This document shows, one piece after another, positions 35,009 through 37,171 of a DNA stretch of 64,000 bases. Below the pieces are notes generated by a model. The model saw nothing but the letters and a program-made list of their open reading frames with translations. It made no database searches and was not told where the DNA came from. Source of the DNA: Eledone cirrhosa (Eukaryota); contig OZ024743.1 in NCBI GenBank assembly GCA_964016885.1, positions 337,466,001 through 337,530,000 on the forward strand, read 5' to 3'. Numbering within the stretch: position 1 is the first letter of the stretch; every line of letters starts with the position of its first letter. A program made the position numbers and the translations under genes.

Positions 35009-36159
35009 CATGGAATGCTTTTAACCATCTTTTGATCTTATATATATATATATATATATATATATATAGATATATATACAATATCGGAGAAGCTTTATAG
35101 CGATACTCCGGCCAAATTCCAACTCACTCAACAAACATTAGGAAATAAGTCATTATATTCCTAATTAAGCGTTCGGGGTGCTAACTAAAAGTATTGCGTT
35201 GAAAATTGGCTGTATTATTTCATATGAGACATATCGAATATATCTCTTCCCAGACGGACGTCTCGTTTCATTATAGGATTCCTACAATTTGGGTGAAATT
35301 ATACCAATTTATGTAGGAGCTTGTATACCATCAATAGATATATATTCAAGTGGGCTCCTATAATTCATCAGTGGGTGCCCCAATAATACTAATATTGATA
35401 GTCTAATCAACATCAGCATTTAGCGATAATCATCATCAGTGCCAGAGGTATCTGTCAGGTTGCCAGTCCAGCAGTTCTAAAGAAATGCTCAAACTGATTC
35501 AAATATGAGGAAGTAAATTACCGCCAAAAAAAAAAAACAATACATGCGCATGACAATGAACTCTAAAAGTAATTCAGGCCACATGCTAGAACCCAATTGG
35601 AAATTGAAAAAATATCTGTGTGTACAACGTTTGATGACACACAGATATTTTCTCGGGCAAAATAACAGAATGAGATATAAGGAACAATCAATATTCATAT
35701 ATAAAAAAATAAACAAAGAAAGGCTAACCTTATACCGGGAATTTCAAATCTGTTGGACCAAGAGTAAATAAATACATAGAATATCGGAGGAAGCTTTATA
35801 TATATATATATATATATATATATATATATATATATATATATATATTATATATATATTATATATATATATATATATATATATATATATATATATATATATA
35901 TATATATATATATATATATATATATATATATATATATATATATATATAAATATATATATATATATATATATATATATATATATATAAATATAATATGTTG
36001 AGAAGGTAACACACCAGAGAGAGATATATAGTGCGTTATCAATAATACAGGGAAAAAAACCACCAGTGTATGGAATCTATAACCTATGAAAGGCAGACTA
36101 TAGACACGATAATTAAAAATATAAATTAAAGCGTAAATAAATACCTTTATAACTATATA

Positions 36160-36240
36160 ACACACGTACAAATCCAAAGATATGTTTCACCAAAAAATTT
36201 GTTGAAAGAAATGGTCTAGTCTCGGTTCATCAGCGTGTGT
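36160..36240 (-). ncRNA. Type I hammerhead
   Basis: acacacg CTGATGA acc...ggt GAAA catatc tttg gatttg TA cgtgtgt. Confidence 0.8.
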
Positions 36241-36701
36241 AAGGCCATACATTTCAGACAACACTAAGAGAATTTTACAATTGACTGTCCAGCTACACGT
36301 GGGAGAAAGAAGTCACAGCGTGTTTAAGGGCAGTGAACCAGTGGCCTCTGAGAGACGAACTGCTAGAAAGGGCAGCCCAAAGCCACTCAGAGAAGTGTGC
36401 TCAACCAAACAGAGATAGGAAAGACTGTTATTAGGAGCGAAATATCACGATAAATTAACGGAGCCATAGGCCGTCGTTATTCCCTGTAAATAATGTGCTC
36501 AAAGGAGAAGAGATCCTGAGCCCTTTAAAATATAATATGTTGAGAAGGTAACACACCAGAGAGAGATATATAGTGCGTTATCAATAATACAGGGAAAAAA
36601 ACCACCAGTGTATGGAATCTATAACCTATGAAAGGCAGACTATAGACACGATAATTAAAAATATAAATTAAAGCGTAAATAAATACCTTTATAACTATAT
36701 A

Positions 36702-36782
36702 ACACACGTACAAATCCAAAGATATGTTTCACCAAAAAATTTGTTGAAAGAAATGGTCTAGTCTCGGTTCATCAGCGTATGT
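36702..36782 (-). ncRNA. Type I hammerhead (second copy)
   Basis: Same motif; the single stem I change gives a G-U pair. Confidence 0.8.
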
Positions 36783-37171
36783 AAGGCCATACATTTCAGA
36801 CAACACTAAGAGAATTTTACAATTGACTGTCCAGCTACACGTGGGAGAGAGAAGTCACAGCGTGTTTAAGGGCAGTGAAAATATACATATATATATATAC
36901 ACAAATACACACATATATATACTAGACATGAAAAATGCGCAAGCTCAAAAGTGCCACAGAATGTTATAATAAACCTTCAAAAGTGTGGGACTAGAGTTGT
37001 TGCTAAAAAATATTGTAATCATTATATATCGTACATTCTGTGGCATCCTTTATAAAAATAGCTTAAACCAACGAAGCCTTTATTTTTACGCTATTTCACT
37101 TAGTTAATTCTTAGAGTGTAACATATAAAAATATGATTTACAACTATAAAATAAATTAATTAATATAATAA

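Follow-up and report, generated by a model that had tools for sequence, protein, structure and literature searches.

What do two hammerhead motifs spaced 542 nt apart on one strand delimit, and how would a unit that encodes no protein be copied to new sites? Both motifs reported by the first-pass annotation of the window (the whole 64,000-nt stretch analyzed here, from a 3.0-Gb animal assembly whose repeats look octopod-like) were recovered on the minus strand, with CUGAUGA cores at 36775-36769 and 36233-36227; a repeat search over the whole window was dominated by microsatellites, yet the 542-nt spacing was detected. The whole insertion (35986..36879, minus strand) is a 5'-truncated partial tandem of 894 nt, i.e., 1.65 units, short of a full dimer. 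Numbering from the base after the cleavage site as unit position 1, it comprises unit positions 372-542, 1-542, and 1-181, and the monomer between the two predicted cleavage sites (36167..36708, minus strand; 542 nt, GC 38%) is the predicted circle. A direct repeat of 352 nt (35986-36337 vs. 36528-36879) carries two differences, one of them in stem I, where C-G becomes U-G and pairing is kept, as had been claimed. We also agree that the unit lacks an ORF: the longest stop-free frame in the translated part of the unit dimer was 70 aa, and no consistent ORF was found at 110 family loci. The repeat does sit in (TA)n, with an unstranded target microsatellite of ~190 bp at the element's 3' end (35797..35987) and a short TA/TG run on the 5' side; since the flanks are (TA)n, a target-site duplication cannot be read.

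We then assessed the size and coherence of the family. A DNA search of the genome gave 2,879 candidates, and among the 40 scored, the best full-length copies were 96-100% identical; they were spread over many contigs, with arrays ranging from a single unit to >4. A 31-nt pattern spanning the cleavage site had 1,126 exact genome matches, while the reversed pattern had none, so the hammerhead unit is not a product of chance; likewise, the 5' half of the window subfamily gave 260 exact matches, with 0 for its reversed control. A pattern that excluded the window subfamily returned 94 related hammerheads (control, 4), of which 50 were examined (the first 30 plus 20 chosen as divergent). Non-coding sequence of the unit was matched by 47 of these 50, mostly at 70-90% identity; of the remaining three, two are members of different families, and L079 probably matches the pattern by chance. 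The 542 tandem joint was confirmed in DNA contigs/RAD reads, also from organisms B and C, and no junction to a coding element was seen among the loose ends listed (339 more lay beyond the listing). The description of a retrozyme-like, non-coding family with dispersed copies thus holds, and the outcome that the annotation had named as its own refutation, a deletion product present in a single copy, is excluded by the many copies.

Two of its statements needed qualification, and its account lacks the two fixed ends, the PLE insertion signature, and the pairing of loop II with the 5' flank described below. The unit was called unrelated to the window's other hammerhead elements, and indeed blastn gave no match to the other intact hammerheads; a decayed element at 48935-49550 does, however, share a 20-nt motif with it. 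The length was placed at the long end for animal retrozymes, which is right against the 170-400 nt of those tested as circles (PMC7229834, in part) but not against the 51-972 bp of unit lengths in the main text of preprint 10.64898/2026.07.22.740005, whose supplements may list similar families. The shared motif, GGCTGC-CTTTCTAGC, lies at 36361..36380 (minus strand), ~130 nt upstream of the core, and recurs 130-170 nt upstream of the hammerhead in several otherwise unalignable hammerhead elements (window 48935-49550, minus strand; L089, L121, L129, L239, and L231-L248). We infer that it is a promoter or protein-binding site, possibly a promoter module; in some elements, there are nearby boxes that we take to be CCAAT and E2F-like. 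A Pol III internal promoter, considered from the A/B-box consensus, was set aside on account of a T6 run within loop II.

We next examined the ribozyme itself. Hammerhead 1, of type I (36702..36782), has stem I at 36782-36776/36708-36702, the core at 36775-36769, stem II at 36768-36765/36734-36731, GAAA at 36730-36727, and stem III at 36727-36710, with predicted cleavage after 36709; hammerhead 2 (36160..36240; core 36233-36227; predicted cleavage after 36167) has the same layout, and all of these features are on the minus strand. The 7-bp stem I of each hammerhead and the non-palindromic stem III (ACA-U.U-AUC/UUUG/GAU-UGU) are as first described. Between core and GAAA there are indeed 38 nt, but rather than the long stem II proposed for them, a stem of 4 bp (up to 7 if G-U is counted) closing a 30-nt loop (36735..36764; second copy, 36193-36222) fits better. 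The type I features are present (CUGANGA core, GAAA, UH, and stems I-III). Rfam gave no match at the gathering threshold over the window, nor at E<=10 over the locus, and the ribozyme call is therefore based on three things: core motif, helices, and relatives. The core was intact in 62 of 66 young copies. We aligned the window copy with 36 of the 50 relatives, dropping 14 for indels, truncation, duplication, or membership in another family. One stem I pair was A-U in 23 and G-C in 11 of the 37 sequences; the search pattern itself dictated two stem I pairs as well as the core. The first stem II pair (10.1-11.1) is A-U in the window subfamily, so that the G10.1-C11.1 usually conserved in hammerheads (PMC4209133, in part) is absent; across the alignment, it was G-C in 15/37 and unpaired in 20/37, with A barred there by the search pattern.

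The predicted circle folded at -127.7 kcal/mol (z -3.1 vs. 60 shuffles), and imposing stems I-III on it cost 1.0 kcal/mol. When the window copy was folded locally without constraint, the core misfolded at ~1 kcal/mol below the hammerhead. A long non-palindromic stem III and a cheap hammerhead fold make a monomer-type ribozyme plausible, and we consider it probable that the hammerhead cleaves in vivo; against this, only 1 of 9 Xenopus dimers cleaved (preprint 10.64898/2026.07.22.740005).

Loop II proved to be complementary to ~24 nt directly 5' of stem I (36784..36808 for hammerhead 1; second copy, 36242-36266; minus strand), a predicted pseudoknot or switch helix. The median z of this duplex over 51 sequences was -3.2 against base shuffles, and in the 37 aligned sequences, its 19 pairs were 87.6% paired, vs. 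26-40% for slid controls. Changes on both sides were found at 5 of the 19 pairs. Over the whole structure, the number of cells with a both-side change exceeded that in all 500 shuffles, while the number of pairs with such a change, seven, was matched by 210 of the 500, i.e., no excess; the most variable pair falls at a gap register of the alignment. The window copy belongs to the youngest subfamily, whose helix (-12.2 kcal/mol, z -2.2) is weaker than that of many older copies. Families B and C keep the same layout with other letters. Family B has 1,438 candidates, with z < -2 in 13 of the 17 loci parsed out of 25, these copies being near-identical; family C has 46, with five z values of -0.2 to -2.3 and pairing mostly read by eye. 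Both (B, L046/L203-L227; C, L067/L228-L252) are non-coding hammerhead families in (TA)n with a palindrome of 100-230 nt upstream, and the predicted cleavage site is GUC in most copies of family B.

In the active fold, the proximal block of the helix (6-7 bp) would lie at the junction of stems I and II, as do the short hammerhead pseudoknots that have been shown to speed cleavage (PMC3088659, in part). We think, with some confidence, that the proximal pseudoknot is part of the active fold; by our estimate, with a linker of 8 nt, it is borderline whether the distal block (12 bp) could form while stem II is closed. In three of eight folded relatives, the nested minimum-energy fold instead contained an upstream/loop II hairpin that replaces stems I and II, and since the helix displaces both stems there, a switch role is possible. 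The conserved complementarity fits a pseudoknot, with the alternative hairpin also possible.

To see how copies arrive in the genome, we compared the ends of 44 independent loci (24 from the first genome search and 20 from a later one, duplicates removed). Their 66 outer ends fell at two places, 31 at unit positions 175-184 and 35 at 258-269, and TA repeats followed directly after 58 of the 66; four further outer ends were short inverted stubs. In the window, the first fixed 3' end (unit position ~179) is a hairpin with an AU-rich end at 36530..36557, whose copy at 35988-36015 forms the 3' end of the insertion, while the second closes an 88-nt "tail" (36442..36529) that runs up to unit position 267; all three lie on the minus strand. 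A long inverted 5' arm was present at 22 loci, all but one of which (21) had one end of each kind. The insertions thus carry the signature of PLEs of the Neptune/Nematis type and of Naiads, i.e., 5' truncation, partial tandems, an inverted 5' copy, and a tail, often one-sided, of 88 nt here vs. 30-40 in PLEs (PMC8557442 and PMC11167929, in part). Two internal start sites and microsatellite targets are likewise shared: Naiads prefer (TA)n (PMC8557442, in part), and for an anole PLE protein, cutting and extension of both target strands has been reported, with the tail set by two internal start sites on the RNA (PMC11167929, in part). We infer that the two target strands each primed one arm, copying beginning at 179 for one arm and at 267 for the other. 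Tandem arrangement would also be expected of a satellite or minisatellite amplified at the DNA level, in which the hammerhead is passively inherited, and local amplification via unequal crossover has been proposed (preprint 10.64898/2026.07.22.740005); but the short arrays are dispersed over many contigs, are truncated at random 5' positions, stop at fixed 3' sites, and carry inverted arms, and the 21/22 end rule already contradicts such an origin, which we regard as extremely improbable. We consider it very likely that the unit is a non-autonomous element mobilized by PLEs.

We then set out to determine which form of the RNA serves as template. In all of the first 100 junctions listed, the cleavage site was read through, as judged with a pattern blind to C in the six upstream bases and to junctions not ending in TA. 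None of the 100 began at the cleavage site, and cut linear monomers were therefore rejected as the main template. Divergence was 1.2% within loci and 1.8% between loci. A private non-CpG variant was present in all covering pieces at 9 of 44 loci, while 112 private variants were unshared; by our own reading, the sharing was between tandem units of one arm in six of the nine. Subfamily alleles were concordant within loci in 31 of 38 cases and discordant in seven, and L010 had an ABAB pattern. The sharing of private variants and the allele concordance suggest passage through one unit, as in the rolling copying of a circle proposed for retrozymes (PMC7229834, in part). On the other hand, concordance could stem from unsampled homogeneous donors, and the seven discordant cases and the ABAB pattern would also be expected from uncut multimers or later duplication.

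The copies in the genome therefore favor a circular template, with uncut multimers possible too. If an uncut linear multi-unit transcript were the template of the PLE-mobilized element, the hammerhead would be slow or held off by the upstream helix, then a switch and not a pseudoknot, and circles would be a by-product. Complete read-through fits such a template equally, as do the hairpin that replaces stems I and II in three of eight folded relatives, the weak first stem II pair, and the seven discordant alleles of 38; in vitro, the anole PLE used mainly unprocessed RNA, and its own hammerhead was dispensable (PMC11167929, in part). With uncut templates, however, arrays could only shrink, yet arrays of >4 units exist; six loci share private variants between successive tandem units; and neither the core nor any of the three stems has been lost, stem I showing a compensatory change. 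We judge an uncut template unlikely, and a circular RNA, as far as genomic copies can indicate, to be the fairly probable template.

Which enzyme might copy such a template? GIY-YIG PLEs are abundant in the genome (10,596 candidates), and from 50 loci, we obtained seven PLE families with markable ends. The tail of one of these, Neptune-A (its clade named by motif only, a C-terminal endonuclease preceded by CxxxxCxxC), aligned to unit positions 150-177 in seven of seven tail copies (p<=0.007 vs. 1,000 dinucleotide shuffles). This match covers the final 27 nt leading up to the 179 end, where both elements end and both fold a small hairpin; the other six PLE ends gave p>=0.25, one of them aligning at the matching place. 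Sequence beyond the tail differs, and the one full-length Neptune-A 5' end (L158, among 30 loci; another search yielded insertion ends only) continues into its own ORF, so the similarity is that of a shared end motif and not of a direct parent. The 267 end is common to another non-coding hammerhead family (L209; family B), with 26 of the last 28 nt identical, and none of the PLEs in 92 PLE-derived loci or in the window had this end. On this evidence, we give Neptune-A an even chance of being the source of the partner enzyme. Two other candidate links were rejected: an antisense match of unit positions 19-67 to Neptune-A 3' UTRs, which is AT-rich low complexity, and an RT ORF upstream in L041, where intervening TA runs indicate a nested insertion.

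The same data bear on another reading, in which an autonomous PLE with unsampled coding copies would have left the unit copies as 5'-truncated fragments of its pseudo-LTRs. The PLE-like insertion signature would fit, just 40 of the 2,879 candidates in the first search were scored, and PLE protein matches occur at 7 of 110 family loci. These seven, however, differ in clade and side; upstream of the hammerhead, every long-enough copy re-enters the unit, wrapping to position 1, unlike the sole full-length Neptune-A 5' end; and 47 of the 50 older relatives match the non-coding unit. An RT and GIY-YIG ORF between pseudo-LTRs, the criterion for an autonomous PLE, was not found at the sampled unit loci. 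Such an origin is thus very unlikely.

Several other observations on the Neptune-type elements were made. Of seven non-TA read-throughs of the Neptune-A tail, five (L133-L135, L140, and L142) connect it with fragments of a common short repeat that end at the repeat's own 3' end, possibly through template switching or hitch-hiking. Downstream of the endonuclease (L111, L112, L117, L119, L122, and L081-type loci), the hammerheads of Neptune-type elements are minimal, with U3-A8 in the core (UUGAnAA) instead of C3-G8 and a palindromic CCGG stem III; in one such family, GCAA replaces GAAA.

The surrounding region of the window is rich in PLEs and LINEs. A Penelope/Poseidon-like element (9526-14370, plus strand) has an RT-endonuclease ORF that is broken and flanked by two repeats spaced 4,148 nt apart; each repeat contains a hammerhead (10169 and 14317) whose stem III is a palindromic TATATA; a third copy of the repeat lies at 62089 (62017-62142). 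A further hammerhead family, at 34946 (plus strand), at 63198 (minus strand), and in L128, has an 8-bp stem I, a stem II region of 36-37 nt, and a palindromic TGCGCA stem III. Four more fragments of PLE-like RT or GIY-YIG lie at 17964-19293, 20991-22418, 45182-46888, and 56506-58430. The insertion adjoins a MITE-like perfect inverted repeat of 216 nt (36918-37133 and 37802-38017, around 668 nt), 38 nt from the unit's 5' junction.

How does the unit compare with known systems? By its layout, our verdict is that it would be an animal non-LTR retrozyme. Like those of coral, mussel, and axolotl, it is built of tandemly repeated non-coding units, each containing a single type I hammerhead (PMC7229834, in part; preprint 10.64898/2026.07.22.740005, main text), has a GC content below 50%, and coexists with autonomous PLEs (PMC7229834, in part). 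It differs from them in its long stem III, its (TA)n target, and a loop II that pairs with the 5' flank where animal retrozymes have the usual loop 1/loop 2 contacts, as well as in its two fixed ends and inverted arms; these ends and arms are not described for animal retrozymes in the available text of these two sources. From PLEs, it differs in lacking RT and endonuclease, and its large, monomer-type hammerhead contrasts with the minimal ones, with palindromic stem III, of the Neptune-type elements of this genome. Non-autonomous Chlamys elements such as MRC1 are also head-to-tail PLE derivatives, with a 3' end that resembles the autonomous partner, but they are green algal, and their clade is reported to be without canonical hammerheads (PMC8557442, in part). 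Pseudoknotted hammerheads, of which the human C10orf118 ribozyme is one, join their stem I and stem II sides by base pairing in place of loop-loop contacts; those pseudoknots are of 4-6 bp (PMC3088659, in part), whereas the helix here has ~19 pairs in two blocks and belongs to a repetitive animal retroelement. Supplements and subscription texts aside, no paper among those listed for pseudoknotted and type I hammerheads, retrozymes, Neptune PLEs, and octopus or cephalopod hammerheads dealt with this family or with a helix of such length; the term "pseudoknot" is absent from PMC4209133 and PMC6155905.

Taken together, we think it likely that this is a protein-less (TA)n retrozyme, probably self-cleaved and circularized, that is rolling-copied by a PLE RT-endonuclease, possibly of Neptune type. 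Transcription would start from a promoter inside the unit and run through the partial tandem; monomeric hammerhead cleavage would free the 542 nt, which would close to a circle, with the loop II/5'-flank helix acting as a pseudoknot that keeps stems I and II alongside each other and whose distal half perhaps frays or acts as a delay. A dimeric PLE protein would nick both (TA)n strands and start copying at 179 on one strand and at 267 on the other, and the two arms would be joined head to head into the inverted structure. More tentatively, and with considerable doubt, we propose a retrozyme clan with a new ~19-bp loop II/5'-flank pseudoknot hammerhead, in which a dimeric Neptune-type enzyme would copy the circle, starting at two fixed sites that each serve one target strand.

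In the literature consulted, the enzyme that moves animal retrozymes and the circle's role as template are argued from co-occurrence and pseudo-LTR similarity. Here, the insertions carry a PLE signature and follow the one-end-each rule almost strictly, with both start sites mapped and a candidate partner at hand; with this signature and partner, the enzyme and template questions can therefore be taken to direct assays with the 542-nt RNA. The one-end-each rule also bears on the origin of the inverted structures and tails of PLEs, and the long conserved helix would be either a natural hammerhead architecture or a natural off-switch. If the proposal is true, the genome copies of this family would directly record a rolling-circle, two-ended Penelope transposition and would name the enzyme that moves retrozymes.
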